Below, piece by piece: positions 1 to 33,801 of a stretch of DNA of 34,143 bases. The notes beneath the pieces were generated by a model. That model was not told the origin of the DNA. It made no database searches and saw nothing but the letters and a program-made list of their open reading frames with translations. Every line of letters starts with the position of its first letter. Within the stretch, counting starts at the first letter, position 1. The DNA is from Reclinomonas americana ATCC 50394 (lineage: Eukaryota): contig PS015379.1 in NCBI GenBank assembly GCA_048213135.1, positions 1-34,143 on the forward strand. The letters are read 5' to 3'. The position numbers and the translations under genes are program-made.

Positions 1-2850
1 TGGAGGGCCTGTGCCGCACCATTGCCACCTCATTGACGACGCTGTGCGCCATTCTCGACCCGGCGTCGGGCAAGCTGGACGAGTCGGGTCCGGTGCTGGA
101 GGTGACGCTGCGCTACGACGCGCAGGTCGACACGGAGCCGAACGAGGACTTTGCCGAGTTTGCACCCTACGTGCAAGAGTATCGTGCGTGCACTTTCTTC
201 CCCCTTTCCTTGTCTTCCATCACTTTGGCTCACCCCCCACCCTTTGCCTTGTGTTCATCGCAGGTGACGGCAAGCCGAGTGTGCAGGGTCGTGTGCTGAG
301 CTGGCTGGACGATTTCCGCCATGTGGCCACTCTGCTGGGCAGCCGCCTCGACACGGGCGAGGGCGACTATCTGCCGGAGGTGGAGACCGATGCCACCATT
401 CAAAAACTGACGAGCGACATTCAGCGCCTGCTCGACACCAACATTGGGCAGTGCAAGGCCTTCCGCTCCTCCTTCATTCAGTTCTCCTTCTTGTGGATCA
501 AGAACGACGAGGAGAGCTTCCAGGAGTTTTACGAGACGGCGCCGAAGGAGTCACCAAACTCGGAGGAGCCGTCGCTGGAGGCGTTTGAGGAGAAGATTGC
601 GCACTACGAGGGCCTGCTCAAGCAGATTCACGTCCTCAAGAAGGCCACCGACATTGGCTGGCTGCGCGTGGATGCCTCGCCGCTGAAGAGCACGCTGGCC
701 ACTCTGTGTGCCAAGTGGCGTGCCGACTACACCGAGCACTTGTCGAGCCGCGTGCAGAACACGCTCGACGAGCTGGCCGAGTTCATGGAGACCGTCAGCC
801 GCGGCATCTCTGTCGACGTGCCCGACAACAACCTCGCCGTGTTGAAGGAGGTCATGGGCCACATTCGCCAGGTGCTCAAGCGCGAGGAGGCGATTGAGAC
901 CATGTGGGAGCCGCTGAAGAATATTGGTGAGTTTTATTTTTTTCACTAGGAGTGTGGATATGGTGGTGATGCTGATGGAACGGTTGGTGGTGTGCAGTCA
1001 ATTTCTTGAAAAAGTGCAACTCGCCCGTGCCCGACGTGGTGTACACGCAACTGGAGAACTACCCGCAGCAGTGGAACAAGCTGAAGACTCGCGTGCTGAA
1101 CAAGCGTGCCGAGCTCAGCCCGCTGCAGGACAAGGAGGCGGAGAAGATCAAGGTGTCAGTGGATGTGTTTGCCGAAAAGGTCACGGCGTTCCGCCGCAAG
1201 TTCGAGCAGGACGCACCGTTCGACTGGAATGTCGGCGTCGACAGGGCCTACGATGCTCTCGACGTGCAGCAACAGCAATTGGTGCGCATGGAACGCGAGA
1301 ATGAGGAGCTGAAGAACTTGCAGGGCCTCTTTGGTCTGTCGCCCACCGACTTCCGCTCGCTCAAGGTCTGTGTCATCCTGCCCCTTCCACTTTTCTCTTC
1401 TTTTTCTCATCCTATTTTTCTGTCTGGCGCAGATGTGCCGCTCGGATCTGGTCAACCTCAAGCAAGTGTGGGACATGTCGGCGCTGGTCAAGAACCAGTT
1501 CGACTCGTGGATGCTCACCGCGTTCAAGAACGTGGAGGTCGACTCGCTGACGGAGGAGACGCGCAAGCTGCAACTGCTGATGCGCGCCTTCAACAAGGAG
1601 ATCAAGAGCTACAACGTCTACAACGGCCTCGACGCGGAGGTGCAGAACATGCTCACCGCCCTGCCGCTGATTTCCGATCTGCGCAACCCCGCAATGCGAG
1701 CGCGCCACTGGAAGCAGCTGCTGACCGAGACCAACAAGACTGGCAGTTGCGCTCCAATAGTCTCCCTCATTCCTCCGTTTCCATCCTCCCTTCTCACTCG
1801 CCTCGCCTCCTGCAGCCATCAACCCGGATGCCGACGACTTTTGCCTGCAGCAACTCATCGACCTGGGCCTGCACGAGTACGTGGAGGAAGTGTCGACGAT
1901 TGTCGACAAGGCCATGAAGGAGCTGGCCATTGAGAAGAATCTGCAAAAGATCAAGGACGCGTGGGCCATCCTCGTCTTCGAGTACGAAGAGAGCGATGAG
2001 CTCAAGGTGCACCTCATGAAGCTCTCGGACGAAATCATGGAGGCCGTCGAGGAGCATCAAGTTGCGTCGCGCCGCCTATTGCATGTGAATCCATTTTTGG
2101 CTGACCCTCTGCTGTTTTTGTAGATGATGCTGCAAGGCATGGCTGGCAGCCGCAATGTCGAGTTCTTCGAGAAGGAGGTGACCAAGTGGTCCAACATTGT
2201 CGGCGCTGTCGATGAGGGCATTCGCCTGTGGACCAACGTGCAGGGCAAGTGGTCCAACCTGTACCCCATTTTCGTGCTGTCGGCCGATATTCGGTTTGTG
2301 TGTCTGCTATTGCCGTCATTGTGGTCGACCTCGTGACTGACTCTCCTCTTTTACATGCGTGTGCAGTGAGCAATTGCCCGAGGACTCGCGCCGATTCGAA
2401 GGCATTGATCGCGTGTTCCGCGACATTATGCAGCAGGCCAAGAGCGTCACCAACGTTGTCGAGGCCTGTGCCGAGGACACCATTCAGCGCAAGATGAACT
2501 CGAGCAAGGACTTTATGACCCTGCTACGCGAGATGGAGGCGGAGTTGGAGAAGTGCGAGAAGGCCTTGGCCGACTACCTGGAGACGAAGCGCAAGATCTT
2601 CCCGCGCTTCTACTTTGTGTCACCTGCCGATCTGGTCGACATTCTGTCCAAGGGCAGCACGCCGCATCTCATTATGCGCCACATTGGCAAGCTCGTCGAC
2701 TCGCTCGACACGCTCATCTTCCAGTCGGTGCCGGAGGGCGCCGAGCCGTCCAAGATCGCCATTGGCATGATCTCCAAGGAAGGCGAAGAGGTGTGTACCG
2801 CTGTGATGGTGGAGGGACCGTGGTGTGCTTAACTCTCGTCACTCATGCAC

Positions 2851-2884
<34 letters not shown>

Positions 2885-4339
2885 NNNNNNNNNNNNNNNN
2901 NNNNNNNNNNNNNNNNNNNNNNNNNNNNNNNNNNNNNNNNNNNNNNNNNNNNNNNNNNNNNNNNNNNNNNNNNNNNNNNNNNNNNNNNNNNNNNNNNNNN
3001 NNNNNNNNNNNNNNNNNNNNNNNNNNNNNNNNNNNNNNNNNNNNNNNNNNNNNNNNNNNNNNNNNNNNNNNNNNNNNNNNNNNNNNNNNNNNNNNNNNNN
3101 NNNNNNNNNNNNNNNNNNNNNNNNNNNNNNNNNNNNNNNNNNNNNNNNNNNNNNNNNNNNNNNNNNNNNNNNNNNNNNNNNNNNNNNNNNNNNNNNNNNN
3201 NNNNNNNNNNNNNNNNNNNNNNNNNNNNNNNNNNNNNNNNNNNNNNNNNNNNNNNNNNNNNNNNNNNNNNNNNNNNNNNNNNNNNNNNNNNNNNNNNNNN
3301 NNNNNNNNNNNNNNNNNNNNNNNNNNNNNNNNNNNNNNNNNNNNNNNNNNNNNNNNNNNNNNNNNNNNNNNNNNNNNNNNNNNNNNNNNNNNNNNNNNNN
3401 NNNNNNNNNNNNNNNNNNNNNNNNNNNNNNNNNNNNNNNNNNNNNNNNNNNNNNNNNNNNNNNNNNNNNNNNNNNNNNNNNNNNNNNNNNNNNNNNNNNN
3501 NNNNNNNNNNNNNNNNNNNNNNNNNNNNNNNNNNNNNNNNNNNNNNNNNNNNNNNNNNNNNNNNNNNNNNNNNNGGCCCAGATCCTTCGTCGTCTCCGTC
3601 TTGCCCGTACCGGCGGGACCGGCAGGCGCACCACCCTGTTGTTGTGGGGGAAAAGAAAGAAAGAGTGAGTTGCCGAAAAAAGTCACAAGTCTTCCACAAT
3701 CAAACGGTTGACACACCTGCACCAAGCGCAGCGCCTGCGTCAGGGTAATGTAGCAGCGATCGGTCAGCGGCGTAATGACCAGGCAACCGCAGTTGCCGAT
3801 GTACTCGTAGCCGTAGCGGAACTCGGCATCGGCCACCATGATGGTGCACTCGCGCAACTCATCATCCCAGGCCATGCGCAGCTGCGACTGCCACGCAAAC
3901 ACCAAGTGGTTCTCGGCGGCGTTGGTCACCAAGCTGGTGACCACATCACGAGCGTGCACCTCAATGGTGATCAGAGTGATGATCTTGCGGCGCTCGTCGC
4001 CAGTCAGCTCGCCACGGACCAGCGTGGCCAGCTTGCTCAGGTTCTCCACCTGCTGCTTGTTGTAGTCGCGGACGGCGTTGGCGTTGCCCTCCTCCTTCAT
4101 GCCGAACGCATTGTCGACATCGCGTGTCCACCAAATGCGCGACACGGCAGTGACAATCTGCGCCGGGTACGACTCCAGCCACGAGGCGAGGGCGGCCTCA
4201 CGCTCGGGCTCGGCGTACGAGGTGGCGGCATCGGCCAGAATTTGGCGCAGCGTGTCGGCAATGTGCGCAATCAGGCCGTTGAGCCAGTCCTCGACAGCTC
4301 CCTCACAGGTGAACGGGCTGCGGAACATGACCTGTGACC

Positions 4340-4431
<92 letters not shown>

Positions 4432-7400
4432 NNNNNNNNNNNNNNNNNNNNGAGTATCATTGCTCCCTCTATCTCTCTTTCTCTCTCTCCCCTTACTGTA
4501 AGTGTGCTGATTGCTGACACGCACACTCAGGGCTTTGAGGAGGCCAAGCCGCTGTCGAAGAAGTTTGTGACGCTGTACATGCTCAACCGCGAGCTGCTGT
4601 CCAAGCAGATTCACTACGATTGGGGTCTCCGTGCCGTCAAATCCGTGCTGGTCATTGCCGGTGGCTTGAAGCGTGCCGAGCCGTCGATTAGCGAGGACAA
4701 GATTCTCATGCGTGCCCTCCGTGACACCAACATGGCGAAGCTGTCGCGCGATGATGTGGAGATTTTCCGGTTTGTTGTTCTATGCTTCTTTTATTGTGTG
4801 CGTGCGTGTATGCGGCCTGCTTACCATCCCCCAATGCAGCGGTCTCATTTCGGATCTGTTCCCGGAGATGGAGCTGGCGCCGAAGCGTGACGTGGAGCTG
4901 GAGAATGCCATTCGCGAGGCCGTGACTGAGTCGCGGCTGCAGCCTGGCGAGCGCCGCGATGCTGGTGCTGTGGAGATGTTCATTCTCAAGGTGCTGCAGT
5001 ACAAGGAGCTGCTGGACGTGCGTCACTCGGTGTTCGTGCTCGGACCGGCCGGTGCCGCCAAGTCCGCCATGTGGCGCACCCTTGCCACGGTGCGTTTTTC
5101 TTGTGTTTCTCAAGTCTTGTGCATGTTTGTACTCTTGGCACTAACGTTTCTCTCTCACTTCCTCCTCCTCCCCCTCCCCACAACAGGCCATGACTCGCCT
5201 CGGACACCGTGTGGCCACTGCGATCATCAACCCGAAGGCTGTGAGCTCGGATGAGCTGTACGGCTACGTGCACAAGGCCACTGGCGAGTGGCGCGACGGT
5301 CTGCTCTCGGTGCAGATGCGTAACTTTGCCGACGACTCGAAGCGCAACAAGCATCCCAAGTGGATTGTGCTCGACGGTGACATTGATACCGAGTGGATTG
5401 AGTCGATGAACACTGTCATGGACGACAACAAGGTGTTGACGCTGGCCTCGAACGAACGCATTCCGCTCACGCCGTCGATGCGCATGGTCTTTGAAATCAG
5501 CCACCTCAAGAACGCCTCTCCCGCCACTGTGTCTCGTGCCGGTATTCTCTTTATCAACGAGACTGATGTGGGCTGGGGTCCGTTCAAGGACAGCTGGATT
5601 GACGAGCAGCCGGAGAAGCAGGTTTGTGTGTTGTTTGCTGTATTTGTGCTTTCCCTTTTTTTTCCGCTCACCACTCTCAATCCACCCGTGTAGCACTCGC
5701 TGCTGACTCGCCTGTTCGACACGTACGTGCCGGACACGCTGGAGTACGTGCAGAAGAACCTGAAGCACATTATCCCGGTGTCGGACTACATGATGGTGCA
5801 GACGCTCTGCTACTACCTGGAGGGCCTGCTGCGCATTGCACCCGCCAACATGTCCAACGAGCTGTTCGAGCACTACTTTGTGTTTGCGGCAGTGTGGGCT
5901 GTCGGCGGTGGCCTGGCGGAGGAGGGCGGCGTGAACCAACGCAACCTCTTCAGCAACTACTGGCGCAAGGAGTACTCGGGTGCTTCGGCGCCGGTCAAGT
6001 TCCCCGACGGCGGCACTGTGTTCGACTACTTTGTCGATCCGGAGCAGCAGAAGCTCCGCCCGTGGCAGGAGATTGTGCCCAAGTACGAGCACGCGGCTGG
6101 TGAGTGGCGCGTCTTCATGTTTCCCCCCCACCTTTCATTTCGTACTCACTCACTTTATCTCCTCCCCTTGCGTTGTGTATGCAGATGCTGCGTACTCGAG
6201 CATCTTTGTGCAGACGGCCGAGACGGTGCGCCTCGGTTTTGTCAGCAACCTGATGCTGAACCGTGAGGACCTCGGTCACCCGGTGATGTTTGTCGGCACG
6301 GCCGGCACAGGCAAGACGGCCATTATGCGCGACATTCTCAGTCGCTTCGACGAGGACACCAACATTTTCCGCCAGATCAACTTCAACTCGCAGACCGACT
6401 CGGCTACACTGCAAGTCATTCTCGAGCAGAACATTGAGAAGCAGGGCCGCACGTACGGCCCGCCTGGCCGCAAGAAGTGCATCTTCTTCCTGGACGACAT
6501 CAACATGCCGACGCCCGACAAGTACGGCACGCAGTCGTCCATTGCGCTGATTCGTCAGCACATGGACTACAGCTTCTGGTACGATCGCCAGAAGCAGGAG
6601 CAGAAGATTGTCAAGAACCTGCAATACGTGGCCTGCATGAACCCCAAGGCCGGCTCGTTCACCATTGACGAGCGCCTGCAGCGCCACTTTGCCGTACTGG
6701 CCGTCAACCCGCCAGAGGCCAGTGACTTGCGGGTGCGTCGAATTTTGTTCGTCTGTATTCTTTTTTGTCACCTCCCTCCTCACTGTATTCTTTATTGATA
6801 CAGACCATCTTCTCGCAAATCATGCGCGGCCACTTGAAGCCGTTCCAGCGCTCGGTGGCCGATCTGGCCGACCGCATGGTCGATGGCCTCATCTCGCTGC
6901 ACCAGCAAGTCGTCAAGAACTTTATCCCGACCTCGATCAAGTTCCACTACGTGTTCACGCTGCGCGAGATCTCGAACGTGTTCCAGGGCCTGTGTGCCAC
7001 TCGCGCACAGCAACACACCGACCCGATGATGCTTGTGCGCCTGTGGGCACACGAGGCCTTCCGCGTCTACTGCGATCGCCTGATCAACGAGAACGACTCG
7101 GATCGCTTTGTGGCGCTCATCACCGACACCCTCAAGGGCAGCTTCTCCGAGTTCCCGGTCGACCAGGTGCTGGCACGACCGCTCGTGTTCACGCAGTTCC
7201 TGAAGAAGACCGAGGGCAACGAGCCGGTGACGTGGCCGGTGGACTCGTACGACACGCTGCGTGCCGAGCTCGACTTGAAGCTCAACGAGTACAACGAGAA
7301 CCGCGCCGTCATGGAGCTCGAAATCTTCGAGCAGGCGCAGGAGCACGTGTGCCGCATCTCCCGCATCCTGTTCCAGCCTCGCGGTAACGCGCTGCTGGTC

Positions 7401-10400
7401 GGTGTCGGTGGTTCCGGCAAGCAGAGCTTGGCTCGCCTCGCCGCCTCCATCTGGGGCATGGATGTGTTCTCAATTGTCGTGCGCTCCGCCTACGGCATCA
7501 ACGATTTCAAGCTGGACATTAACCAGCTGTACCGCAAGGTCTGTTGTTTGTTTTCCCCTTCCCATGCGCGCGCCACACCCTCTCTCACCACTCACCACTT
7601 TGTTTTTTTCGTTTTGTATCTCAGGCTGCGCTCAAGCCCGGCACACCTCGAGTGTTCCTCATGAACGACTCGCAGATTGTCGACGAGCGCATGCTGGTCT
7701 ACGTCAACGACATGCTGTCCTCCGGCAACATTCCCGACCTGTTCACGCCTGAAGAGCGCGACGAGATTCTCGGCACGATGGCCAACGAGGTCAAGCAGCA
7801 ACAGGCTGGCGACTTCAACAACAAGGACGTGGTGTGGGAGTACTTTATCAACAAGGTCCGCAACAACGTCCACGTCGTGCTGGCCTTCTCGCCTGTCGGC
7901 GAGCAGTTCCGCGTCCGTTGCCGCAAGTTCCCGGCGCTGTCGTCGTGCACCGTCATTGACTGGTTCCACGCGTGGCCGTCGCAAGCCTTGGTGTCGGTCG
8001 CCAACCGTTTCCTCGGCAAGATCGACCTCGGAAGCACCGAGATGCGCGAGAAGATTGCCGAGGTTTGTTTGTTTGTTTGTGTTTCTACTCGAGTGTCGTG
8101 TAAGATTGTCATTCTAATCCCTCTCCCTTTTCCTCACAGTACATGGCCTTTGTGCACTCGTCGGTGGAGGACGCCAGTCGCGAGTATCTCGCCGTGCAGC
8201 GCCGCTTCAACTACACCACGCCAAAGAGCTTCCTGGAGCTCATTGTGCTGTACATGAGTCTGCTGACCAGCAAGCGTACCGATCTGGAGAAGAAGATTTA
8301 CCGCCTGGAGAGCGGTCTCTCGAAGCTGCTGTCGTCGTCCGACCAAGTCGCCGTGCTGCAAGAGGAACTCCGTCGCACTCAAGTGCGTGTCGAGGAGAAG
8401 AAGGTGGCCACGGACAAGCTGCTGGAGCGTGTGGGCCACGAGCGCAACATTGTGGAGAAGGAGGCCGCCATTGCCGATGTGGAGAAGCAGAAGACCATGG
8501 TGCTGGAGAAGGAGGCCACGGACTTTGCCGAGAGCGCCCGCGAGGATCTGGAGAAGACGGTGCCGATTGTGCAGCAAGCCTTGGCTGCGCTCGACACACT
8601 CAACAAGAAGAGCATCGATATTCTCAAGTCGCTGGGCAAGCCGCCGCAGGATGTGCAGGATGTCGCCATTGCTGTGCTGCTGCTGTCGAGCCAGGGCCCG
8701 GTGCCGAAGAACCCGACCTGGAACGACGCGCGTAAGATGATGGGCAACCCCGTGCAATTCCTGCAGATGCTGCAGTCGGAGTTCGATATTGACCACATTC
8801 CGCAAGCCAACGTGGACGCCGTGGAGACGTACGTTGTTCGCGACACGTTCGAGCCGGAGGTGGTCGCCACCAAGTCCGGCGCTGCTGGCGGTCTCTGCTC
8901 GTGGGTCATCAACATTGTCAAGTACCACAAGATCAACCTCGAGGTCGCTCCGCTCAAGGCCAAGTTGGCGGAGGCCCAGGAGAGGCTCTCTGTTGCCCAG
9001 GCGTCGCTGCAAAAGTGCGTCGACCACGTGAATGCGCTGCAGGCGCAGCTCGACACGCTGTTGGCCGAGTACGAGGAGGCGCGCCAGGAGAAGCTCAACA
9101 TTGAGCGACAGGCGCAGGAAACGGCCGACAGTCTCGACCTGGCCGAGCGTCTTGTGAATGGTCTGTCGGGTGAGCGTGTGCGCTGGGCCGCAGCCATTGA
9201 CGAGTTCAAGGCCAGCCGTGAGACGCTGACGGGTGACGTGCTGCTGGCGGCTGCGTTCCTGTCGTACATTGGACCCTTCTCTCGCCGTTTCCGTGAGGTT
9301 TGTGCTTTTCACGTCTCTCTCTCTACTCTTGTCGTCATTCACTCACTCTATCACTCGCTTGCTCTCCCCTTTCCATCCGCAGTCACTGCTACAAGAAAAG
9401 TGGATTCCGACCATCTTCCAGCGCGGCATTCCCACCACACCGGAAATGGATCCGCTGCTCGGTGTGCTCACCGACGAGGCCACAATTGCCAAGTGGACCA
9501 ATCAGGCGCTGCCGGCCGATCGCATCTCGCAAGAGAACGGCGCCATTGTCACCAACTGCAAGCGCTGGCCTCTGCTCATTGACCCGCAGCTGCAAGGCGT
9601 GCGCTGGGTCAAGAACATGGAGGCCGCCAACGAGCTCAAGGTGCTGCAGCTCAGCAAGGGCAACTACATGCGCGACATGAAGATGGCGTTGCAGAACGGC
9701 AACCCGGTGCTGATTGAGAACCTGGGTGAGACGATTGACGCCGTGCTGGATCCGATTGTGTCGCGCTCCATTATCAAGCGCGGCCGCAACGAGTACATCA
9801 AGCTCGGCGAGGAGGAGATTTCGTATCACCCCAAGTTCAAGCTGTACCTGCAGACCAAGCTGTCGAATCCGCACTACCGTCCCGAGATTCACGCGCAGAC
9901 GACGCTGGTGAACTTTATGGTCACGGAGGACGGTCTCGAGGACCAGCTGCTGGCCGTCGTCGTGAACAACGAGCGTCCGGAGTTGGAGCGTNNNNNNNNN
10001 NNNNNNNNNNNNNNNNNNNNNNNNNNNNNNNNNNNNNNNNNNNNNNNNNNNNNNNNNNNNNNNNNNNNNNNNNNNNNNNNNNNNNNNNNNNNNNNNNNNN
10101 NNNNNNNNNNNNNNNNNNNNNNNNNNNNNNNNNNNNNNNNNNNNNNNNNNNNNNNNNNNNNNNNNNNNNNNNNNNNNNNNNNNNNNNNNNNNNNNNNNNN
10201 NNNNNNNNNNNNNNNNNNNNNNNNNNNNNNNNNNNNNNNNNNNNNNNNNNNNNNNNNNNNNNNNNNNNNNNNNNNNNNNNNNNNNNNNNNNNNNNNNNNN
10301 NNNNNNNNNNNNNNNNNNNNNNNNNNNNNNNNNNNNNNNNNNNNNNNNNNNNNNNNNNNNNNNNNNNNNNNNNNNNNNNNNNNNNNNNNNNNNNNNNNNN

Positions 10401-11923
10401 NNNNNNNNNNNNTTACTTGGTGACTTACTTTTGTGTGTTTTTGGTGACAGGGCTGGAACCGCAGCTATCCGTTCAACTTTGGCGATCTGACCACTTGCGT
10501 GGCCGTCGTCAACAACTACCTCGATGAGCGACCAGTGCCATGGGAGGATCTCAGATACATTTTCGGCGAAATCATGTACGGCGGTCACATTACCGACGAC
10601 TGGGATCGCCGTCTGTGCATGACCTACCTGACGGTGAGCTGCTGAAGAAGAGGAGGAGGGTGGGGAAAAGATGCACAGAGACGGTGACTTACGCGGTGTG
10701 GTGCTGGTTTGCAGGAGTACATTCGCTCCGAGTTGGTGGACGGCAGCATGCAGTTCTTCGAGGGCTTCTCGCCACCCGCACCCGCGACGGCCACCATGGC
10801 CGAGTTCCGCGAGCACATTGATGTGGAGCTGGCGCAGGAGACCCCGAAGGCCTTTGGCTTGCCGCCGAACGCCGAAATCGGTTTCCGCACGACGCAGGGC
10901 GAGAACCTCTTCCGCAACATTATGGAACTGCAGCCGCGCGGTGGCAGCTCCAGTGGCGGCATCAGCGTCGTCGACAAGACGCGCGACATTCTCACCGAGA
11001 TCAACGAAGGCCTGCCACCGCAGTTCAACATGCTGGAGCTGGCCGAGCGCCTGGAGGAGCGCGACCCGTACCAGAATGTGTTCATGCAAGAGTGCGAACG
11101 CATGAACAAGCTGCTGAGCGAGATGAGGAGGTCGCTGGATGAGCTGGCCATGGGTCTTTCGGTTCGTTGCATAGAAGAGAAGAATAATATGTGTGTATCT
11201 GCCAGTGACTTACACTTCTCCACTCCACAGGGCGAACTGACCATGTCGGAGAAGATGGAGAAGCTGATGAACTCACTGTACTTGGACCGCATTCCGGAGT
11301 CGTGGGAGTCGGTGGCGTACGCCTCGCTGCGTCCGCTCGGCATGTGGGTGATCGATTTGCATGCTCGCCACACACAACTGGCCGACTGGGTGAACGAGTT
11401 GGCGATGCCCAAGGTCGTATGGCTGCCGGGCTTCTTCAATCCGCAGTCGTTCGTCACGGCCGTGCTGCAAGTGACGGCTCGCCGTCAGAAGCTGCCGCTG
11501 GACAAGATGATTCTGGTGACCGACGTCACGAAGAAGCAAGTGGACCAGATTGAGAGCGCGGCTCGTGAGGGCTGGTACGTGCACGGTCTGTTCCTGCAAG
11601 GCGCCGGCTGGGATCTGGCCGGTGGTGTACTGGAGGATGCGACTCTGAAGGGTGAGTGAGTGAGATTGAGAAACCAAGGCGGAGTCAATGTGTGTCTCAC
11701 TGTTTTGTGTTGCTGCTGAACAGAGCTGGCGCCCGCAATGCCGGTGATCCACGCGCGAGCTGTGTTTGTGGATGCGGCCGACTTCAAGGACTCGTACATG
11801 TGCCCGGTGTACAAGACACAAGAACGCGGCGCCACCTACGTGTGTACCGCCAATCTGAAGACCAAGGCAAAGGCGGCGAAATGGGTTCTGGCCGGCACTG
11901 CCTTGTTGTTGGATGGTGAGTGA
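1..11923 (+). CDS. DNAH9/11/17-like: Axonemal dynein heavy chain, outer-arm beta/alpha-type; 5'-partial, multi-exon, interrupted by gaps
   Basis: Hand-spliced exons: 1-183, 264-926, 998-1365, 1433-1745, 1816-2060, 2124-2293, 2367-2790, [inverted 4331-3717, 3635-3575], 4531-4769, 4840-5089, 5187-5621, 5694-6099, 6185-6732, 6804-7538, 7625-8062, 8140-9297, 9383-9991, gap, 10451-10633, 10715-11161, 11231-11651, 11724-11923. Every placed junction is GT-AG and in phase. Motifs: linker [38 protein letters not shown]2 [38 protein letters not shown]3 [11 protein letters not shown]4 [15 protein letters not shown]; coiled-coil stalk with MTBD; AAA5 [22 protein letters not shown]-terminus [29 protein letters not shown]. 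These match the outer-arm beta-type group as I recall it; the subfamily call needs a phylogeny. Confidence 0.96.
2855..2884. repeat. (CT)n microsatellite at a contig edge inside a dynein intron
   Basis: Pure CT run that ends at gap 2885-3574. Confidence 0.95.
3575..4331 (-). CDS. Two exons of the same dynein heavy chain (end of linker to AAA1 P-loop), reverse-oriented in the scaffold
   Basis: Minus strand reads cacag|[18 protein letters not shown]...[29 protein letters not shown] (4331-3717), then intron 3716-3636, then [20 protein letters not shown] (3635-3575). This continues directly from ...MISKEGEE at 2790. Confidence 0.95.
4347..4431. repeat. (GA)n microsatellite; reverse complement of the (CT)n at 2855-2884
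   Basis: Pure GA run that ends at gap 4432-4451. On the minus strand it leads into the acceptor ...tttgccttggtcacag. Confidence 0.95.
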
Positions 11924-19500: not shown

Positions 19501-22500
19501 CCCGTCAACGACAAGACCGCCACCGCACCGCTGTGAAAGTGGTGAGCAGCAACAGCAAAAGCGTGAGAATAGTGCGGTACACTGCAACGGCGTGGTGAAT
19601 CCGTGAGCTTACCCGTTGCGGTTGAAGCGAATGATTTGGTTGTTGCCGCTGTCGGTGACGAAGAAATTGCTAGAGGCCGGATCGTACTGCGCAGCGAAGA
19701 GTGAGGCACTGTGCCAAATAAATCATAGATGGTGGTGGCGTCACACGGCTCACCGTGATACCCGTCGGCGTGTTGAGGCGCGACACGCCGGGCTGGCCTT
19801 GCACGTTACCGGAGGTGCCACCCAGACCCACCACGACCGTCGACACACCATTGTCGCCGGCAATGGTCTTGCGCACAACGTGGTTGCCCGAGTCCACTCC
19901 GTACACTGCAACAAGGAAACGGATGGTGTTTAGAGAAGCGGCGAGAGAGAGAGAGAAGAAAACAGAGGCCACGTGTGTGTGTGTGTGCACGCACATTCGT
20001 TGGTGCCGGGGACCCAGGCCATGCCAGTCGGCGAGTTGAATTGCTGCGTCGGGCAGGCACCAGAACTGCAGCGTGTGCCATGTACAGTGAGCATTGGTGG
20101 TTCGGGCCGACGTGGTAAATGAGGTGACGCGCAACATGGAGAATCCCTGCGTGCCAGTGCCGCACACGGTGCGCACACCGCGTGAATTCTTCAACGAGAT
20201 CATCTTCTGGAACATGTTGCCGGTGGCGTCGCGGACCGTCAAGTTGAGCGACAGATTGGCGCTGCCGCACTGCATCGGCGTTCCGTTGCACGGTCCCTGA
20301 GTGGTGGGGAACACCTGGGCGTTGCAGTTGAGCTGCAGCATGTTGTTGTTGTAGATGTGGAACATGTCGGCGTTGGGTCCGCCAGTGATCGCAAAGGTGA
20401 ATGTGTCGTTGGGGTCGGGATCGGTGGCCGTGAGAACACCGACAAGGGCGCCCGGGGCAGGCGGGTAGAAGATGGTGTCGAGCTTGATGTCAGTCGGCGC
20501 GCCACCATTGAGTGACAGGATGGCAGCCTGGATCCAGTTGCCTGCGCCGCCAAAGCGCACGCAGAGGCGGAACTGGCCAAACGAAAGAGTCGCACCGGCA
20601 GCAATCGTCGGGGTGAAAATGACGCGGCCGGGCTTGTTGACGTCCTCCGACGGTGTGTTGATAGAAAGGCCAGTGGCATTGGTACCAGCACAGGCCTGGC
20701 TTGAACCCTCGATAGTCACCTCGGTGGAGGCAGCCACGAGCGATGCGCCGAACAGGGACATGGCGGTGCCGGAGACAATGTTCTGAGAAAGAAGGGTGAG
20801 CAAAACAAGTGTGCGGAAGAAGTGGAACACAGTGCCGCGTGCCACACACGCAACAGGAGGTTCGACTCCGCAAGCCACCGTGTTGCCATTGGGTGCAATC
20901 GTGTCCAGCACGCGCACCAGGCGACTGTCCTTTTCGACAAAGAAGATGATAGTACGACCGCTGATGGGACCGGTGGTGAGCGTCAAGCCCGCGGGTCCCT
21001 GCATTTGCGCAAACAGCGGCGCGCCATCGCGGTTGCCAGCGACACTGCCGCCGGCCAAGGTGGACACCTGACCATTCGAAATCTTGCGAAGGCGATTGTT
21101 GCCCTACACGTCACAACAAAGAGGAATGCATGAGTGGCACATGCACAAGCACACAGCGAGATTGTGACAGCTTGCTTACCGGATCGGAGACGTAGAGGAC
21201 CGTATTGTTGTTGACGGTCTCGGCCGCAATGTTCGCCGGCGAGGCAAACTTGGCGCTACCCGTGGCTCCGTCGACGAATCCCGAGGTGCCGACACCGGCG
21301 ACCTTGGCCGTGTTGGTGCCGTCAAACGACAGGACTTGATGGTTCAGCGAGTCCACAATGTACAGCGTCGTGCCGAGGAATGTCACGCCACGCAGGCTGT
21401 TGAAGCGGGTGGTGGTGGCGTCGCCCTGCACGCTGCCGCTCGTGCCGCTCAGACCGATTTCGCCATTGGTCACCACGGCCCACGTGGTGGTGTCGACAAT
21501 GAGCAGACGGTGGTTGCCCGTGTCGGCAATAGCCAGTCGGTTGGTGCCGCCCATAAACGTGATGGTGCCACTCAAGGCCAGACCGGAGGGGGCGCTGAGA
21601 CCTTGACCACTGGCACCGGTGATGGTGATCGCGGTGGCGTTGCCACCAGCACGCGGCACACGAAGAATGCGGTTGTTGGCCGTGTCGGCAATGTACACCT
21701 CATTGGTGGCCGTGTTGTAAGCCAGTCCACCAGGCGACGACAACTGGCTGGCGCCAGAGCCCGAGGTGCCGGCCGACCCGAAGAAGACGGGGTAGTCTGC
21801 AGCAAAAAAAATTAGAAGATGAGATAAGGGCGGAAGAAAGGGAGGAGTGGGAGAGGCTGGCATGGTGCTAACCGCCGGTGCCAGCCGTGTTGACGCGAAC
21901 AACGTGGTTGCCGGTGTCGGCCACCCAGCACTTCTTGCTGTGGTAATTCGAAAGAGTACATGAGTGCATGACAGGGGAGAGGAAGGAGAAAGGGCGAGGG
22001 AGAGAAGAAGAAGAAGAAAAGGAGAGAGAAGAAGGAAAGGAAGAGGGCGAGAGAAAAGAAAGAAGCGAGAGAGAGAGAAGAAAAAGAAGAGGGCGAGAGA
22101 GAAGGAAAAGTGAGCGAGAGAGAAGACAGAGAAGAAGGTGAGAGAACAGATAAAGTAGAGGGTGAAAGAGAAGGGGAAATGAGCGAGAGAAGAAAGAGAA
22201 GAGGACAAGAGAGAGAGAAGACAGAGAAGAGGGCGAGAGAGAGAGAAGAAGAAGAGAAGGAGAGGGAGAAGAATAATAAGAGGATGAGAGAAAGGTGAGA
22301 GAAGTGGGCGAGAGAGAGAGAGAAGACATAGAAGAGGACAAGAGGGAAAGAAGAAAACGAAGAGGGCGAGAGAGGAGAAAAAGAAAGACGAGAGAAAAGA
22401 AAGAGAAGAGGGCTAGAGAGAAGAATAAATGAGAGTGAGAGAGAGAAGTAGAACAGGGAGAACGTGAACTGAGAGGGGAGACTAATCAACTAGTTAGTCT

Positions 22501-23423
22501 TTGAAGTCAGGAACGTGTTCTGGAGGAGTGAGGATTGAGGGAGAAGAGTATCGAGACATTGCGAACACTCGATATCAAAGATCATGCGATGAAGAAGGCG
22601 TTCGCGTGCGCAACTTATCGCCCTGCGTGTTGCAGACAACATCGGTGGGATTGTTGAAAATTACATTCGGCGGGCGGCCGGCCAGCGACCACAGTGCACC
22701 ACCTGCAACAAGGAAAGTGAGCAAGCAGAGGCGTTGAGCGCCAAGAAGTAACGGGCACGTGCGCACCATTGGCCAGCGTGAACTGCTTGGTGAAGGTGTT
22801 GCTCATGCTGTCGGTGGTGGTAATCGAGATGTTGAGATCGCTGCACCGTTAATGGCACACGCGTTAGTGAGTACCGCATATAACCTCCCACAGACAAGTG
22901 CCAAAACGACTCACCGGGTGATCGGCGGCTGCGGCGGATTGGGCGGACTCGGGGCCATGTACGGCATCACCGGCGTGCTGCACTTGAGCGCCAAGTTGTT
23001 GCCTTTGATCTCAAACAGGGCGGCATCGGCGCCGGAGAGCGTGTAGGTGAAGGTATCGTTCTGATCTGCACAGCAGGAAGCGTTTTCGGAAGAAACGCAT
23101 TGGTATTTGACCGTTTTTTTAACGAAGCAACGGTTGTTGCCGTAGTCATCGGAAATGCACACCGGCACTCACCTGCGTCTGTCGAAGACAGTTGACCGAC
23201 CGTCATGCCTCCAAAGGGGGGGTACACGGTCGACGAGAGCGCAATGTCGGTCGGACTGGCCGCTTCGCGCACAACAACAAATCAGTGTCAGAGAGCATAC
23301 AGAACGGGACGACTGACTTTGGCGACGAGAGAAAGTGTATCATCGTCACTCACCAAGTGCCAGTAGCGCGTGCATCATGACCAGCAGTGCAAAGACTGCT
23401 GTCGCGTGACGAATGCCCGTCAT
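13543..23423 (-). CDS. Very large type-I single-pass surface protein: signal peptide, 2x (cadherin-like + NHL propeller), 5 Cys-paired IPT/Ig-like repeats, several FN3-like domains, TM helix, Ser-rich cytoplasmic tail
   Basis: About 35 exons join in frame from ATG 23423 (MTGIRHATAVFALLVMMHALLAL, signal-peptide-like) to TGA 13543. Cadherin-like: PTDIALS..VGQLSSTDADQNDTFTYTLSG..FEI and PTDIKLD..VGVLTATDPDPNDTFTFAI. NHL: VYIADTANNRILRV, IADTGNHRLL, GFVDGATGSAKFASP, DSANNRIR. FN3: IRVSWTPPS..AVTGFKV and IEWTVPQS. TM: WVWLGPVIGGIVVVISLLVVILVIMV followed by RRRR. A few junctions (near 17635, 15304 and 14734) have alternative placements. Confidence 0.88.
17179..17243 (-). other. GC-AG intron in the surface-protein gene
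   Basis: AAG|gcaagt...caacag|TAC joins FRLCIK to YIGSDRY in phase. The neighbouring GT (A|gtttac) gives no in-frame join with either nearby AG that I tested. Confidence 0.75.
21960..22480. repeat. GA-rich (CT-rich on the transcribed strand) low-complexity tract inside the long intron 21938-22614
   Basis: Nearly pure purine tract with recurring gagggcgagagaga and gaagaa units. Confidence 0.9.
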
Positions 23424-24006
23424 CTTGTTGCTCAGAGAGTGACGACGAGAGGGAAAGAGAGAAAGAGAGGTACTTGCTGGACAAACACACACTCAGATCA
23501 ATGTCAGAGGTGGATGTGCTTCTATGTGTGTGTGCGGGTGTGTGTGCGCGCGAGTGCGCGTGTATGTGTGCGTGCGTGAAGGGTGTGAGGGAGGAGATCT
23601 GCGCTCTCGGGCACGTGCAAAACAAATTGTATTGGTGTGAACCGTCTGAATCTAATTTGCCTGACGGTTGGAGATCGGAAATATTTTTCGATGAGGCATG
23701 TGCACGGTGACGATGGTGTGATGGACACGTCGCTTCTGAGATGCATATCGCCATCGTTTGCAGCGGTGTGATTTCGAATGTAATGTTCGACAGAAATATC
23801 GAAGACCCTAAATAAACTGGACAACCGGACGTCGATGGCAGCTCGTGCTCTCCTCAGCCTCTTCGCCTGCATCTTCTCGTTGACGCGAGCTCAATTTGCT
23901 GAGCAGTCTGTCAAAGCGGTTTTGTCGAGGATATCGAAATGCAATCATCGATATTCCGCGCAACATATCGAACACTCGGAGCGTCATGAAGCGCTGAAGA
24001 CTGACT

Positions 24007-24203
24007 TCATTCTTCCATCGCGAGGTCAGGCATGTCGACGTTGATTGTCGCACTCGCTGCAATGTCGCTCTCCGACGACGACGTGACGACTTGACCCTGA
24101 CGAGATGCGCGTCGCCCACCAGCTCCTCCTTGTTGCGAATCGCGAACCCACTTGGGATGGTACACCTCAGTCTGTGCGTGCGCGATGATGATGATGATGA
24201 TGA

Positions 24204-24235
<32 letters not shown>

Positions 24236-24924
24236 GCAACCGAAGTGAGGCGCAATGTGTTGACAGTTGACCGAAGAACAGATTTCCGACCGCAGCGGCT
24301 CACCAGCAGCCTGAATAGCAGGTTGATGTACGACACGCTGGTGATTCCAGCCAAAACTGCCACACCTGGCGGCTGACACTGAGCGGCCAGCTGTGTGGAC
24401 TGCACGGCGACAGTGCAGAACTGCAGGATGGCGACTGCCCAGTTTGCATGAACCGTCAGCGGTGCGACACCCTATTGTATGAAAGGAGGATCCGGCCTTC
24501 CGGTCAGTCTCGACGGGAAAACAAGGAGAGGGAGATGGGGAGAGAGGGAGAGGGAGATGGAGAGAGAGAGAGAGAGACACAGCGAGAGGCGCACCTTTCG
24601 ACGATTGTAGTGACCGAGCAGGTACTCGTCGGCGGCGAGACGCTGACGATCGAACATTTCCTCACTGCTGCTGCCGCTCGTGTTCTTGTTGTTGCACCAC
24701 AGACACCACCAAAATCGCACCCACTTGCGGAACAGCCACACCAACAGCACGGAGGAGACGCACGTGAGAAGGAGGTTGACGGCACCGCCGCACAGTCTCC
24801 ACGCGAGAGGGTGAGTGGCCACTCGGTAGATGTTGTACACAAAGATCCCCGACTGTGTGCAACCGAGAAACAAGTGGAAGCCGTGCAACGCCGCGGCAAT
24901 GGCGAAACGGCGGCTCGTGTGCAT
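24007..24924 (-). CDS. Hypothetical multi-pass membrane protein, about 220 aa, 3 exons
   Basis: Exons 24924-24595, 24471-24304 and 24171-24007 join in phase 0 (AAG|gtgcgc...aatag|GGT; CTG|gtgagc...cacag|ACT). There are about four hydrophobic segments (FAIAAALHGFHLFLGC.., AVNLLLTCVSSVLLVWLF, WAVAILQFCTVAV, VAVLAGITSVSYINLLF). No family recognised; the start is uncertain. Confidence 0.6.
24185..24226. repeat. Compound (ATG)n(TG)n microsatellite in an intron
   Basis: Seen directly in the sequence. Confidence 0.9.
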
Positions 24925-25114
24925 CGGCACATGGGAGTCGCAGGGTGTGTGTGGTATGTGTGTGTGCTCTGCTGGGGGAACGAGGACGGGAGGAAGAAGA
25001 AAAAGATTCTTCTGTACGGCGGGAAAGGGGGGAAAGGGGCAAAGGGGGGAAGGGGAAATGGGGGAATGGGGAAGGGGAGAGGGCGAGGGACGAAGGGGTA
25101 GAGGGAGAAAGTAA

Positions 25115-25730
25115 GGTCAGACGCCCGATTCAAGGCGGAGCAAGACAAGACCGCGCCACTACCATGCGCTCGATCGCTGTTTAAAGAGGTTGCAGGGAGA
25201 GGCGCCCGATGCGGGGCGGTACAGCACATGGGGGACAAGCCAGGTGACATATAGAGGGGGAGGGAGAAAGAGCGGCGGGAAGTAGAGAAAGAGGGAGAAG
25301 GCAGTGACAGACACTCGGTTCACGGCGGAGCAAGACAAGACTGCCTGTGTTCCAAGCGCTTGATCGCTGTTAGACAGAAGCGGGGTGGAACAGCACTTGG
25401 GGGACATGTTTGGTGACAAATAGAGGGGGAGGGAGAAAGAGCGGCGAGGCCCGATGTGTTCCGGAAGAGCACTTGGGAGACGACAAGTCAGCCGATTACG
25501 CCAACAGTGACAAGGAGAGAGGGCGCGGCAGAGACACACAACGGAGTAGCACTCTGTAGACAAGCCAAACATGTGCCCATCGCTCGATCGCTGTAATAAG
25601 TGCAGAAGGGGGAGAGAAAAACAGAAAAGCGGCGACAGACACCCGAGTTCCGACCGCGAGATCACTGTTGAGGAAGAGAAAGAGGGGGGAGAGAGAGGGA
25701 GAAACCCAGCGACAGAGACCCGATGCGGAC
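25115..25730. repeat. Degenerate tandem repeat with a unit of about 170-220 bp
   Basis: ggcggagcaagacaagac occurs at about 25134 and 25324. (g)cgct(c/t)gatcgctgt occurs at about 25166, 25356 and 25581. tagagggggagggagaaagagcggcg occurs at about 25252 and 25421. Confidence 0.8.
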
Positions 25731-25911
25731 ATGGAGAGAGGAAGATTGAGAAAGTTGTGACAGGAACGCGCCATAAGTGAGAGAGAGAGGAGGACATCCG
25801 AACAACAACAGGCAAAGTAGAGACACGATGCTGAGGCAACATTTACGCAACACACGTTCTCAACGCCACACATAGCCATTGTCGCAAAACTTCCCGAGCC
25901 GCCGACGCAGC

Positions 25912-26449
25912 TTACTCCGCTTCGGCGACGGGTATTGCGACACCGTAGTACGCCTCGGCCTTGTAGACCATTCCGCGCTCGTTCACAAACATCTGCAATC
26001 ATGGCGAGAGGAATGAGGTCGTTGCAGAAAAGGTGCCTGCGTGAAGCGATCAACCCCCACGCGTACCACTTCGCTGGCGTCGACTGCCATGCCTCGCGCC
26101 GTGCTCACGTACAGAATGGAGAGCACACGCGCCTGTCGATCAACCGCCGCGCGCGTCAGCGCAAAGTGCAGGCGATGAGGTGCGAGATTGGCCAGTGCGC
26201 GGTTCCAGTACGCGCGCAGCTCTGCTCGGATCGAAGTGAGAAGGGATACGGTAAATAAAGGTGAGTGGGGGCGTGCTCACTCACCGTCCTTGCCGTGCAC
26301 GGTGGGCTTGCCAACGGTGGCCTGCGCTTTTGGCGAGGTGAACTCGCAGTCGTCGGTGAAGTGTGAGAGGACCTGTAGCGGGGGAATGGGTAAGAAAAGG
26401 GAAGGGGTGGCAAGGGAGGGAAGGCAAGGGAAAGCGAGATATATATATA

Positions 26450-26490
<41 letters not shown>

Positions 26491-27395
26491 CAAGGAGAAG
26501 AGGAAAGATGAGCACAAGGCGAGAGTGAGATCCAGTAGCAGAATTCGTGGTAGCTGGCAGGAAAGGCGCAACATTCTCAAGAAGAAGCAGAATGACGGAG
26601 AGCAGCAGAGGAAGGAGAAAAGGAGATACAATGGGAGTAGGTGTGGAAGCCGACTTTGTCATCGCAGCACTGAGTGATCGAGAAAGGGAAGCAGTGAGAG
26701 GAAGCGGGCACAAAAGGAAGGCGACTGGGGAGTGAGGAGACAGACTTCGTCAGCGGCTTTCTCGAATAAGGGGATTGAGAAAGAGACGCAGAAAAGGCAG
26801 AGAGATGAAGAGGAAAAAGGAAAATACCGCGACAGAGACAATAGTCGTAGTGGAAGCAGACTTTCTGCGAAGGAGGAATATCGAGGAAGAGGAACAGTGA
26901 AACGCAGAGAGCAGATGAGAAAGGAGGTGGCGGAGATCATTGACAGAGCGAGGAGACAGACATCGTCTCAAATATAGAAGATTGAGAAAGAGATGCAGTA
27001 ATATATCCAGAGAAGGCACAGTGGGAGGGTTGCCCGTCTTAGGAGGAAGCTAAAGGCAGAGGCGAAGCGAAGAGCACATCAGGCCACAGGCTGCTGCGAG
27101 CGCGGTCCGTCCCTCCCCCTGCCACCCTCTCCTTCTCCATTCACCTCCTCCACATCATGCCGCGTCCACGCAGCGCACCACTTGCGCGCCCACTCCTCTG
27201 GCGCCTCCATCGGATCCTCAACAACAGCCTGCTGCGATGGTGGCGGCGGAGGCGGAGGCACTGGGGGCGACGGTGGCGTCCGCACCTCATCGCGCCTCAA
27301 CCAATCACCATCCGCAAAGAAGCGACTGGCGGCCACCACCGACGGATCCGCACGCTGCACGTACATGAACGCCCGCGACGCACGCCGATCACCCG
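25912..27395 (-). CDS. SnoaL-like/NTF2-family domain protein; 5' end lost in the gap, preceded by a possible gamma-glutamylcyclotransferase-like C-terminus
   Basis: Exons 27395-27145, 26372-26285, 26221-26067 and 25992-25912 splice to ...WARKWCAAWTRHDVEE|VLSHFTDDCEFTSP..VHGKD|ELRAYWNRAL..LHFAL..LSILY..ASEV|MFVNERGMVYKAEAYYG..*. This is the pattern of bacterial SnoaL-like proteins. The ORF track misses most of it. Confidence 0.85.
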
Positions 27396-32300: not shown

Positions 32301-32344
32301 CTCTCTCTCTCTCTCTCTCTCTCTNNNNNNNNNNNNNNNNNNNN

Positions 32345-32380
<36 letters not shown>
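32301..32380. repeat. (CT)n microsatellite spanning gap 32325-32344
   Basis: Seen directly in the sequence. Confidence 0.9.
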
Positions 32381-32385
<5 letters not shown>

Positions 32386-32496
32386 CATCCTCAATCGCTC
32401 TTCTTCTCCTTTCACCTGTCCCTCACTTCTCCTCCTTTGCTCAATCCCTTCTCTCTCTCTCTCTCCCTCACCTCTCCTCCTTCTCCCTCTTCCCAG

Positions 32497-33801
32497 CTCT
32501 GCGGCTTCGTCATCGACAGCGACGTGGTGGTGGCACACAACGCCCTCGACGCCCTCGGCTCTCTCTCCTCGCACCCCGACAACCAGGCACTCATGTGTCG
32601 CGAACCTCTCCTGCTGGCCAACGTGTGGACGGCCTTTCATCGTTGCGTTCTGGCGTCATTGTTGTGCAGGCGCAGGGCTCTTCCCATCGTTGACTGTGGT
32701 GCAACTGCGCAGTCACTGGCGGCGACCTGACGGCCTACGAGGCCGACGGCGTCACGTCGACTCAGATTCGCGACGCTGCCGCCACGGTGCTCACCAACTT
32801 GTGGGAGGCCATGCTGCAGCACTACGGCTCTGGTGCGATTCGAAAGCCTTCTTCTTCTGCTGCCCCTCCCTGCTTGTGGTGCTCATGCATTGTGTGTCTG
32901 TGCGTGTGTGCGTGTGCAGAGAGACCACGAGGCGTGGATCTGCCGGCACTGGAGGCGTATGTGTTGGAGACGCAGGGAATTGATTTGCGGCGAAAGCGAG
33001 AGGCGTTGGAGGCGCGGCGGGCATCCAGTGGTCGGGGAGCAGGAGCGGGCGAGGGTGGCTCGCTCTCCAAGGAGAGGCGATGGGTGATTATTGCGTTGAC
33101 GAATTTGCATCGAGCCGAAGTGCGCAAGCAGGTGCAGGATGCGCTGATCTCTGTGCGCGGCTTCATCTCGCTCGTCTTTGTGTTGGAGGACAATGTGGCG
33201 AAGATTCTCGCCCAATGCCCGACCGAGCACCTCCTGCAGGCGCTCGAAAAAGCAGGCCTGCTGATTCGCGGCGCCGACGGAGAGACGACTGTCGCCAATG
33301 GCCACGGTTCACCCTCCTCTTCGTCGTCGCCCACCAGCACCACCGTTTCCGCGGCGGCCGGCTCTGCTGCCGCACCACCGGCGGTCACCACCGAGCCCAC
33401 CGCAGTCGACTCGTCGACCGTCAACGGCGCGGAGCCCGACGAAGCGACCTCGGCGGCTGTCAGTTGCGGGCGGTGTTTCCACCCTTTTTATATATTTTTT
33501 GTTGGCGGCCTCACGACGCTGGTGTGCAGTCCGAGCACGCATGATGTACCTGCGTGAACACACACAAGCAGAAGAGGCACGGCTCACGGGCGCCGATCGC
33601 GGTCGTGGTCGCGTGCAGGTCAGAGTCGACGATGAGGATTTGGAGCGGCGGTTCTCGCGACGCGTTAGAAACAGGTGTGTTGTGAGGGGAAGAGTGGTTG
33701 TGAGTGGCAGTCGTGTGCAGAGTGCTGTGGGCGGACTGGTATTGCGTTCCTTGCTTCGTCTGGCGTTTGTTTGGGCGTCTCTCTTTCTCTCTGTGTGGTG
33801 A
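32497..33801 (+). CDS. ARMC1: Armadillo repeat-containing protein 1-like (ARM segment + HMA-like domain); first exon not placed
   Basis: Exons 32497-32641, 32713-32832, 32920-33462 and 33530-(33801). LCGFVIDSDVVVAHNALDALGSLSSHPDNQALMCREP resembles the ARMC1 ARM segment. RWVIIALTNL..RKQVQDALISVRGFISLVF resembles its HMA-like domain. The frame ends in ..FLSVW*, and ARMC1 also ends in Trp. Both termini are uncertain. Confidence 0.75.

Follow-up and report, generated by a model that had tools for sequence, protein, structure and literature searches.

Donors read outside the usual register of pairing with U1 small nuclear RNA (snRNA) are, to our knowledge, known only as rare exceptions. Shifted-register 5' splice sites in mammals were reportedly described by Roca and Krainer in 2009, and the mammalian shifted sites are A-rich (GUUAAGU-like). 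U12-type introns carry the donor RTATCCTT and the branch TCCTTRAC. Here we analyze a stretch of 34,143 bases from a draft eukaryotic scaffold, contig PS015379.1 of Reclinomonas americana ATCC 50394, which includes 8 runs of N and is called the window below. In this window 15 of 56 curated introns appear to begin with a single hexamer, GTTGCG, and the donor signal of these introns seems to be displaced by one base into the intron.

For human sites, both the shifted and the bulge +2/+3 registers are given as established, and the bulge +2/+3 register is listed for 68 sites (54 after curation) of 201,541 (Tan et al. 2016, PMC4856993, the counts being from Table 3). Two major classes of 5' splice site, AG//GU and //GURAG, one anchored on the exon and one on the intron, have also been reported (Parker et al. 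2022, PMC9803359; Open Biol 2025, PMC11732430). In the Mamiellophyceae Ostreococcus and Micromonas, GTGCGT(G) is given as the donor optimum (Irimia and Roy 2008, PMC2483917; Verhelst et al. 2013, PMC3879977), and in their passages on these donors the authors of both papers regarded matching snRNA changes as conceivable. No GTTGCG or GUUGCG donor class was found described in full-text literature; supplementary donor tables might hold some.

As far as the published descriptions go, the GTTGCG sites resemble the mammalian shifted-register sites in that a U follows the GU, the consensus would lie one base into the intron, G+1 would stand in the place of the last exonic G (-1G), and the GU rather than the U1 register would fix the point of cleavage. 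The mammalian shifted sites are, however, very rare and fit standard U1, whereas the sites described here make up 15 of 56 donors, are invariably GCG, and are predicted not to bind standard U1 in any register. They can also be written as a canonical donor with one extra U after the GU, as the human bulge +2/+3 sites are described, but a bulge leaves -1G in play and none of the 15 sites (0/15) has it. As in the reported division between AG//GU and //GURAG, the exon-end G is anticorrelated with the intron-side consensus, and the intron signal is stronger in donors that lack -1G. Those two classes are described as sharing one register with G at +5, whereas here C at +5 and G at +6 occur in 15/15 within a single fixed hexamer. 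The 'atypical' C at +4 of the preferred donor is shared with the Mamiellophyceae, but these algae are described as intron-poor and the passages on their donors mention no one-base-displaced class, while the present locus is intron-dense, with 34 introns in a coding sequence of 6.8 kb. Like U12-type introns, the GTTGCG introns form a second class with a rigid donor and no preference for -1G; neither U12 consensus is present, and the main class shows the same branch motif, spacing and acceptor. A U12-type assignment was accordingly rejected, the donor being GTTGCG rather than RTATCCTT and the branches CTCAC, CTGAC and similar. What would be new at this locus is the use of non-canonical-register donors as a routine class of fixed sequence.

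Introns were located with a dynamic-programming gene finder that scored codon usage (trained on dynein tblastn matches), GT..AG ends, a bonus for YAG and a bonus for a branch motif. The donor motif itself was not scored, and this run is called motif-blind below. A second run was confined to gene regions and used learned donor hexamer frequencies. Five sites (22614, 20854, 17792, 17635 and 33463) were placed by hand from reading frames and sequence. The resulting 56 introns, of which 44 were graded A, 11 B and 1 C, are our own curation of a single window. The 15 GTTGCG sites are listed here with exon end and donor (a slash marks the proposed junction), intron length in nucleotides (nt), branch motif and acceptor.

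1746-1815, plus strand: GTTGCG intron of a dynein gene, gca/GTTGCGCT, 70 nt, CTCAC, CAG; predicted by the motif-blind gene finder
2061-2123, plus strand: GTTGCG intron of the dynein gene, caa/GTTGCGTC, 63 nt, CTGAC, TAG; junction EEHQ/MMLQGM; predicted by the motif-blind gene finder
21938-22614, minus strand: GTTGCG donor taa/GTTGCGCA at 22614, with an in-frame acceptor at 21938 and a CT-rich intron of 677 nt; read by hand, grade B
20783-20854, minus strand: GTTGCG intron, cct/GTTGCGTG, 72 nt, CTCAC, CAG; frame continuous, grade B
20066-20135, minus strand: GTTGCG intron, cat/GTTGCGCG, 70 nt, CTCAC, CAG; picked with learned hexamers, frame continuous
19337-19404, minus strand: GTTGCG intron, caa/GTTGCGTG, 68 nt, CTTAC, CAG; predicted by the motif-blind gene finder, no alternative with +5G
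18492-18545, minus strand: GTTGCG intron, aat/GTTGCGTG, 54 nt, CTCAC, CAG; predicted by the motif-blind gene finder, no alternative with +5G
18295-18368, minus strand: GTTGCG intron, gat/GTTGCGTC, 74 nt, CTCAT, CAG; picked with learned hexamers, frame continuous, no alternative with +5G
17725-17792, minus strand: GTTGCG intron, gat/GTTGCGTG, 68 nt, TTGAC, TAG; frame continuous
17556-17635, minus strand: GTTGCG intron, gca/GTTGCGCC, 80 nt, CTGAC, CAG; grade B
15231-15304, minus strand: GTTGCG intron, cct/GTTGCGTC, 74 nt, CTCAC, CAG; predicted by the motif-blind gene finder
15053-15118, minus strand: GTTGCG intron, cac/GTTGCGTC, 66 nt, CTCAC, CAG; predicted by the motif-blind gene finder
14330-14397, minus strand: GTTGCG intron, aac/GTTGCGTG, 68 nt, CTCAC, CAG; predicted by the motif-blind gene finder, no alternative with +5G
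32642-32712, plus strand: GTTGCG intron of an ARM-like gene, atc/GTTGCGTT, 71 nt, TTGAC, CAG; predicted by the motif-blind gene finder, frame read by hand
33463-33529, plus strand: probable GTTGCG intron, tca/GTTGCGGG, 67 nt, T-rich, CTCAC, CAG; read by hand, grade B

These are the positions and strands at which a first-pass annotation of the same DNA had proposed GTTGCG donors; the hexamer was present at every one, and all 15 were placed as intron starts. Counting both strands, the window contains 42 copies of GTTGCG, compared with 29.9 +/- 5.6 in dinucleotide shuffles, and at least 42 copies were reached in 2 of 100 shuffles. A branch-like motif (CTNAY or TTRAC) followed by a YAG ending was found 54-95 nt downstream of 15/15 listed sites; of the remaining 27 copies, 3 have one within 95 nt. 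All 15 introns start with GT and end in YAG (13 CAG and 2 TAG). They share with U2-type GT-AG introns the GT and AG ends, a branch motif near the 3' splice site, and a reading frame that is restored when the intron is removed. As a feature of the DNA, this putative donor class is real and lies far beyond chance within the window. Placing the introns as TT..GN, with the G left in the exon, would give the same frame but was rejected: the ends would be non-GT/non-AG at 14 of 15 sites, and the motif-conforming R of ANN/RIR would be exchanged for G.

Run over whole strands, the motif-blind gene finder predicted 63 introns and placed 8 of the 15 GTTGCG sites exactly (1746, 2061 and 32642 on the plus strand; 19404, 18545, 15304, 15118 and 14397 on the minus strand). 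With learned donor hexamers, 10 of the 15 were recovered. At the five hand-placed sites the gene finder took a neighbouring GT with a poor motif, and nothing in these choices was recurrent. Among the 14 short class members, a frame-compatible alternative combining +5G, YAG and a branch motif exists for only three: 20135 has four of them, and 15304 and 15118 have one apiece; the other 11 have none. GTTGCG occurs 18 times on the genes' sense strand, 15 of these being the intron starts, and 15 times on the antisense strand.

The hexamer is scarce in the sense-strand exons of the four genes of the window, with 3 copies (at 3858, 12793 and 12538) versus 15 on the antisense strand. Codon usage, or counterselection of cryptic donors, could account for this scarcity.

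Protein motifs had been offered as anchors for several of these junctions, and all were reproduced: EEHQ/MMLQGM at 2061, DTGNNK/VYV at 19404 and DSANN/RIR at 18545. The latter two junctions retain the NHL motifs ADTGNNK/VYVLNN and MDSANN/RIRTIE, respectively, with the repeat spacing intact, so that the pattern D-x-x-N-[NH]-x-hydrophobic is kept at both. For 14 plus-strand dynein introns (3 more had no homologue), all GT/GC-AG pairs within +/-36 nt were scored against homologous proteins. The curated pair came out on top for 9 introns, in second place for 2 and in third place for another 2. Among the first-ranked was 2061-2123, scored against 3 dynein homologues. The intron at 1746 was among those ranked third; its donor is the sole in-phase GT donor for its acceptor and the top-scoring GT donor, and the better-scoring pairs use GC donors. 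Only 2 homologues cover this poorly conserved stretch. For the dynein intron with donor aag/GTCTGTTG (7539, plus strand), homologue scoring favours an acceptor at 7636 over the curated one at 7624, a 12-nt in-frame difference with the same donor. A HMMER search of all libraries with the exon 20138-20782 returned only multi-repeat cadherin-like proteins, in which residues ~90-150 were matched up to 32 times, and was of no use for placing junctions.

The remaining sites differ in how firmly they are placed. For the donor at 22614 the acceptor is uncertain; the one at 21938 keeps the frame into the next NHL exon, and with a nearer CAG at 22520 the frame ends after 4 codons. At 20854 an in-frame alternative donor, acg/GTGGCTTG at 20878, has a poor motif. 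Upstream of 17792 the exon 18294-17793 is a single long open frame, and the gene finder's alternative required an 8-nt exon. The first-pass annotation had flagged 17635 as ambiguous, and an in-frame alternative donor, att/GTCTTTGC, lies at 17662. The donor at 15304 is the sole in-phase GT donor for its acceptor, and the one alternative at 15118 is c/GTACGCG at 15139. What speaks for the site at 33463, which the gene finder did not pick, is only that it carries intron-like signals and that splicing it out changes the frame to one that stays open farther on.

GTTGCG is the commonest donor hexamer in the curated set (15/56), followed by GTGCGT (8), GTGAGT (8) and GTTTGT (5). The 41 ordinary donors comprise 18 distinct hexamers, while all six bases are fixed in 15/15 class members. 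The base at exon -1 is A in 6, T in 6, C in 3 and G in 0 of the GTTGCG introns, versus G in 35/41 of the others (Fisher p = 3.3e-9). This result bears out, for the window, the observation that the class never follows an exonic G. Among grade A introns only, -1 is G in 0/11 class members versus 30/35 others (p = 3.3e-7). The 'about 6' exceptions reported for the other donors proved to be exactly six of the 41 (184, 19994, 16259, 15616, 14753 and 14531). The five of them that are in canonical register are all GTG[CA]GT. The sequence GGTTGCG does not occur on the sense strand of any of the genes; thus no class member with -1G was overlooked.

The conserved G likewise sits at +6 rather than +5, as had been noted: +4G, +5C and +6G are found in 15/15 class members, while +5 is G in 39/41 ordinary donors. 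The two ordinary donors without +5G are those of a doubtful in-frame intron at 17429 and of the intron at 14753. Position +7 of the class (T in 10, C in 4, G in 1) mirrors +6 of the ordinary donors (T in 28/41). The intron at 14753 has a donor related to the class:

14684-14753, minus strand: related donor aca/GTTTCGTA, with T at +3, C at +5, G at +6, T at +7 and A at -1; predicted by the motif-blind gene finder

By its sequence this putative donor (aca/GTTTCGT) is the one-base-displaced form of the ordinary donor tcg/GTTCGT at 11162, which gives a second displaced pair.

Toward their 3' ends the two sets of introns are alike. Median length is 70 nt in the class and 73 nt in the others, 14/15 class introns being 54-80 nt long, and the median distance from branch to 3' splice site is 19 nt and 21.5 nt, respectively. 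CTCAC is the commonest branch motif in both, the mix of branch motifs is alike, and pyrimidine content and acceptors (CAG or TAG in all) are indistinguishable. The GTTGCG class is distinct at its 5' end and, judged by its 3' end, would share the spliceosome of the other introns. A further stretch on the minus strand, 23899-23964, was left uncounted: tat/GTTGCGCG is followed there by TTGAC and CTCAG over 66 nt, and the NHL gene's start codon comes ~590 nt farther downstream. The stretch may be an intron of the GTTGCG class in the 5' untranslated region, with T at -1.

We give about an even chance to the explanation that the 15 sites are genuine U2-type GT-AG introns whose 5' signal is the local optimum G/GTGCGT displaced by one base. 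We infer both the displaced register and the nature of its reader. Under this explanation, whatever reads G-G-T-G-C-G-T at ordinary donors would also accept G-T-T-G-C-G-T. The first G of the intron would occupy the place of the last G of the exon, the invariant G would come to lie at +6 and not +5, and cleavage would occur before the sole available GU, one base upstream of the ordinary-register position. Position -1 of the class would then be the counterpart of ordinary position -2, where G is rare, and so -1G would be missing without being actively avoided. The counts at these positions are G in 0/15 at class -1, 3/41 at ordinary -2 and 35/41 at ordinary -1; by hand arithmetic, the probability of 0/15 G is ~0.32 at the ordinary -2 rate versus ~3e-13 at the ordinary -1 rate. 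The T at the second position would be tolerated only with the rest of the signal perfect. As one central mismatch would already be present, the remainder would have to be perfect, which would fix GCG(T) and leave no GTTGAG. Such a reader would have to prefer C at the ordinary +4 position, which would point to U1 itself, or a second version of it, carrying G/C at its 5' end in place of the two pseudouridines of standard U1. A wider proposal is that two 5' splice-site reading systems operate in parallel in the major spliceosome. Standard U1 would read G/GTNNGT; a second U1-type snRNA, or an altered or extended U1 5' end carrying CGCAAC, would read N/GUUGCGU, and the helix between U6 and the 5' splice site would tolerate a displacement of one base. 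This we consider unlikely.

Pairing with U1 was predicted with ViennaRNA duplexfold, using a canonical U1 5' end (an 11-nt motif, with pseudouridines treated as U). For ordinary donors the predicted mean was -6.8 kcal/mol, and C8 was the partner of +1 in 40/41. Several observations weigh against a displaced signal, and the first of them is that the same model gave the GTTGCG class a mean of only -0.8 kcal/mol, with no consistent register and the shifted one not favoured. In these predictions C8 paired with +1 in 0/15, and G+1 paired with C9 in 2/15. The poor canonical-register fit typical of shifted-register sites was thus predicted, but the clearly better fit on a one-base shift was not, at least with canonical U1. 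Near-zero predicted binding means that simple shifted pairing to standard U1 would not explain the class, and the displacement would require an unseen, non-standard reader. We also know of no toleration of a displaced G at the stage of the U6 ACAGAGA box. The hexamer GTTGAG occurs in 0/15 class members, though ordinary donors with +3G split into 11 GTGAG and 10 GTGCG (p about 7e-6). A general shift should also yield GTTGAG, GTTTTG and similar forms, and none of these occurs; their absence is explained only by the added assumption of an otherwise perfect signal. On the exon side, the class bases at -1 (A6 T6 C3) and -2 (A9 C5 T1) are only loosely like the mix at ordinary -2 and -3. Finally, we infer the exact cleavage positions from sequence only, in an intron set of our own curation from one window in which 4/15 class members and 8/41 other introns are graded B or C. 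The first-pass annotation had proposed that the shifted register is a routine alternative where -1G is absent. Of that proposal, a discrete and frequent class (15/56), the avoidance of -1G and, as far as G goes, the fit on the exon side hold up, while shifted pairing with standard U1 (predicted at -0.8 kcal/mol) and a general use of the shift (no GTTGAG) do not.

The main rival to a displaced signal is a separate reader fully complementary to GUUGCGU: a second U1-type snRNA, another guide RNA or a protein that would recognize GUUGCG(U) through its reverse complement, (A)CGCAAC, in a normal register of its own. This is possible, if on the unlikely side. It would account for the six invariant bases in 15/15, far stricter than the 18 hexamers among 41 ordinary donors, for the obligatory C at +5, and for the prediction that canonical U1 hardly binds the class at all; the scarcity of GTTGCG in sense exons (3 versus 15 antisense) also fits a strong autonomous donor signal. 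By itself, however, it would leave -1G unselected but not absent: at a background of ~28% G the probability of 0/15 is ~0.007 (hand arithmetic). Also against it, the 3' halves of these introns are like those of the other class. Rfam (at gathering thresholds) and ARAGORN gave no match in the window, which thus holds no snRNA gene and no Rfam match for an RNA of this kind. The absence of -1G also bears on a bulged register, in which U1 and later U6 would pair with G+1 and U+2, the U at +2 or +3 would bulge, and GCGU would pair as in GTGCGT, as in the human bulge +2/+3 sites. GTTGCG(T) is indeed GTGCG(T) plus one T, with T at +7 in 10/15, and a bulged register is reported as experimentally established at a few human sites (Tan et al. 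2016, PMC4856993). However, any bulge leaves exon -1 opposite its usual partner, so that -1G should be as frequent as elsewhere (35/41) and not 0/15; the one-base shift matches the exon-side use of G better. Predicted binding of canonical U1 is negligible for a bulge as well, GTTGAG is again absent, and the human register is listed for 68 (curated, 54) of 201,541 sites as opposed to 15/56 here. We regard the bulge as quite improbable.

It is very unlikely, in our judgement, that the class is an artefact of gene modelling, in which junctions were misplaced beside a neighbouring in-frame GT and the association with -1 was inflated by choosing donors for their motif. The junctions were read from the DNA letters alone, 5/15 were hand-placed against the gene finder's choice, in-frame alternatives exist at 20854 and 17635, and homology leaves 1746 unsettled. 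Against an artefact stand the 8/15 sites recovered without a donor motif and the persistence of the association in grade A introns (0/11 versus 30/35, p = 3.3e-7). The gene finder's alternatives share no recurring motif and in one case need an 8-nt exon, and the lack of sense-strand GGTTGCG leaves no -1G member to have been missed. A shared donor could also reflect common descent and not recognition, if the introns were copies of a mobile, introner-like element ending in GTTGCG. The uniform donor, the tight lengths (54-80 nt in 14/15) and the presence of 11/15 in one lineage-specific gene would suit such an origin. In an all-against-all blastn comparison of the 56 introns, however, class members were similar only in bases 1-10, and the ordinary introns span the same length range. 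With no similarity in their interiors, copying from a mobile element is largely refuted and hardly credible.

The introns were curated in four genes, recognized from Pfam matches in long open frames and from tblastn searches with retrieved homologues.

1-11923 (end approximate), plus strand: axonemal, outer-arm-like dynein heavy chain gene (Pfam dynein domains; tblastn with homologues P0001-P0117; junction scoring)
13261-12132, minus strand: 2OG-Fe(II) oxygenase gene
13540-23376 (approximate), minus strand: gene for an NHL-repeat, cadherin-like, single-pass membrane protein (Pfam NHL and Cadherin; one spliced frame)
From ~32,495, plus strand: ARM-like gene

Of the 18 introns curated in the dynein gene, which is interrupted by runs of N, 2 belong to the GTTGCG class. 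One piece of this gene, 3575-4431, lies inverted between the N runs 2885-3574 and 4432-4451. This piece encodes part of the motor (~220 residues) and contains one intron (3716-3636), with its homologue match on the minus strand; most likely it is a contig that was misoriented in scaffolding. The NHL/cadherin-like gene hosts 11/15 GTTGCG sites. It has 2,256 codons in ~6.8 kb of coding sequence and 34 curated introns, and when all 34 junctions are spliced it gives one frame with a sole stop at the end; the position of the first-exon acceptor is unsure. The nearest database proteins were 48-56% identical (48% in one search, 47% in another with 31% of the query aligned, and 56% in a third with 39% aligned). 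No relative was found in a scan of metagenome contigs, and no close transcriptome-derived proteins were found among the database protein matches.

An intron with GC-AG ends at 17243-17179 (minus strand) belongs to the curated set and reads aag/GCAAGTTT, 65 nt, with a CTGAC branch and a CAG acceptor. Splicing there retains the recurring 'FRLC' motif of the repeat domain; the gene finder, restricted to GT, placed the cut 30 nt further upstream. The doubtful intron at 17367-17429 (minus strand) is an in-frame, pyrimidine-rich segment of 63 nt, cag/GTCTCATT, with CTAAC and CAG and without +5G, and is the one of grade C. Such a segment may be coding, or else an intron that is retained or optional.

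The stop of the NHL gene and the start of the 2OG-Fe(II) oxygenase gene are on the same strand and only ~280 nt apart (13261-13542, minus strand), a very tight spacing. Pyrimidine-rich low-complexity tracts (CT on the minus strand) with a strong strand skew occupy 21938-22520 and 23400-27395. The former falls inside what is likely a 677-nt intron of the NHL gene. The latter, 4 kb rich in CT/GA and CA/TG microsatellites that seem to be non-coding, is situated upstream of the same gene.

If the displaced signal is borne out, a genome in which about one quarter of donors carry a fixed signal displaced by one base would be a natural system for studying what selects the scissile bond when U1 pairing does not. 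It would serve equally for asking how far U6 and U5 contacts tolerate displacement, and whether snRNA 5' ends co-evolve with donor repertoires. Gene finders that use a single donor matrix will misplace such junctions, as ours did at 5/15 even with learned hexamers. Annotation of this organism would therefore need a two-class donor model.

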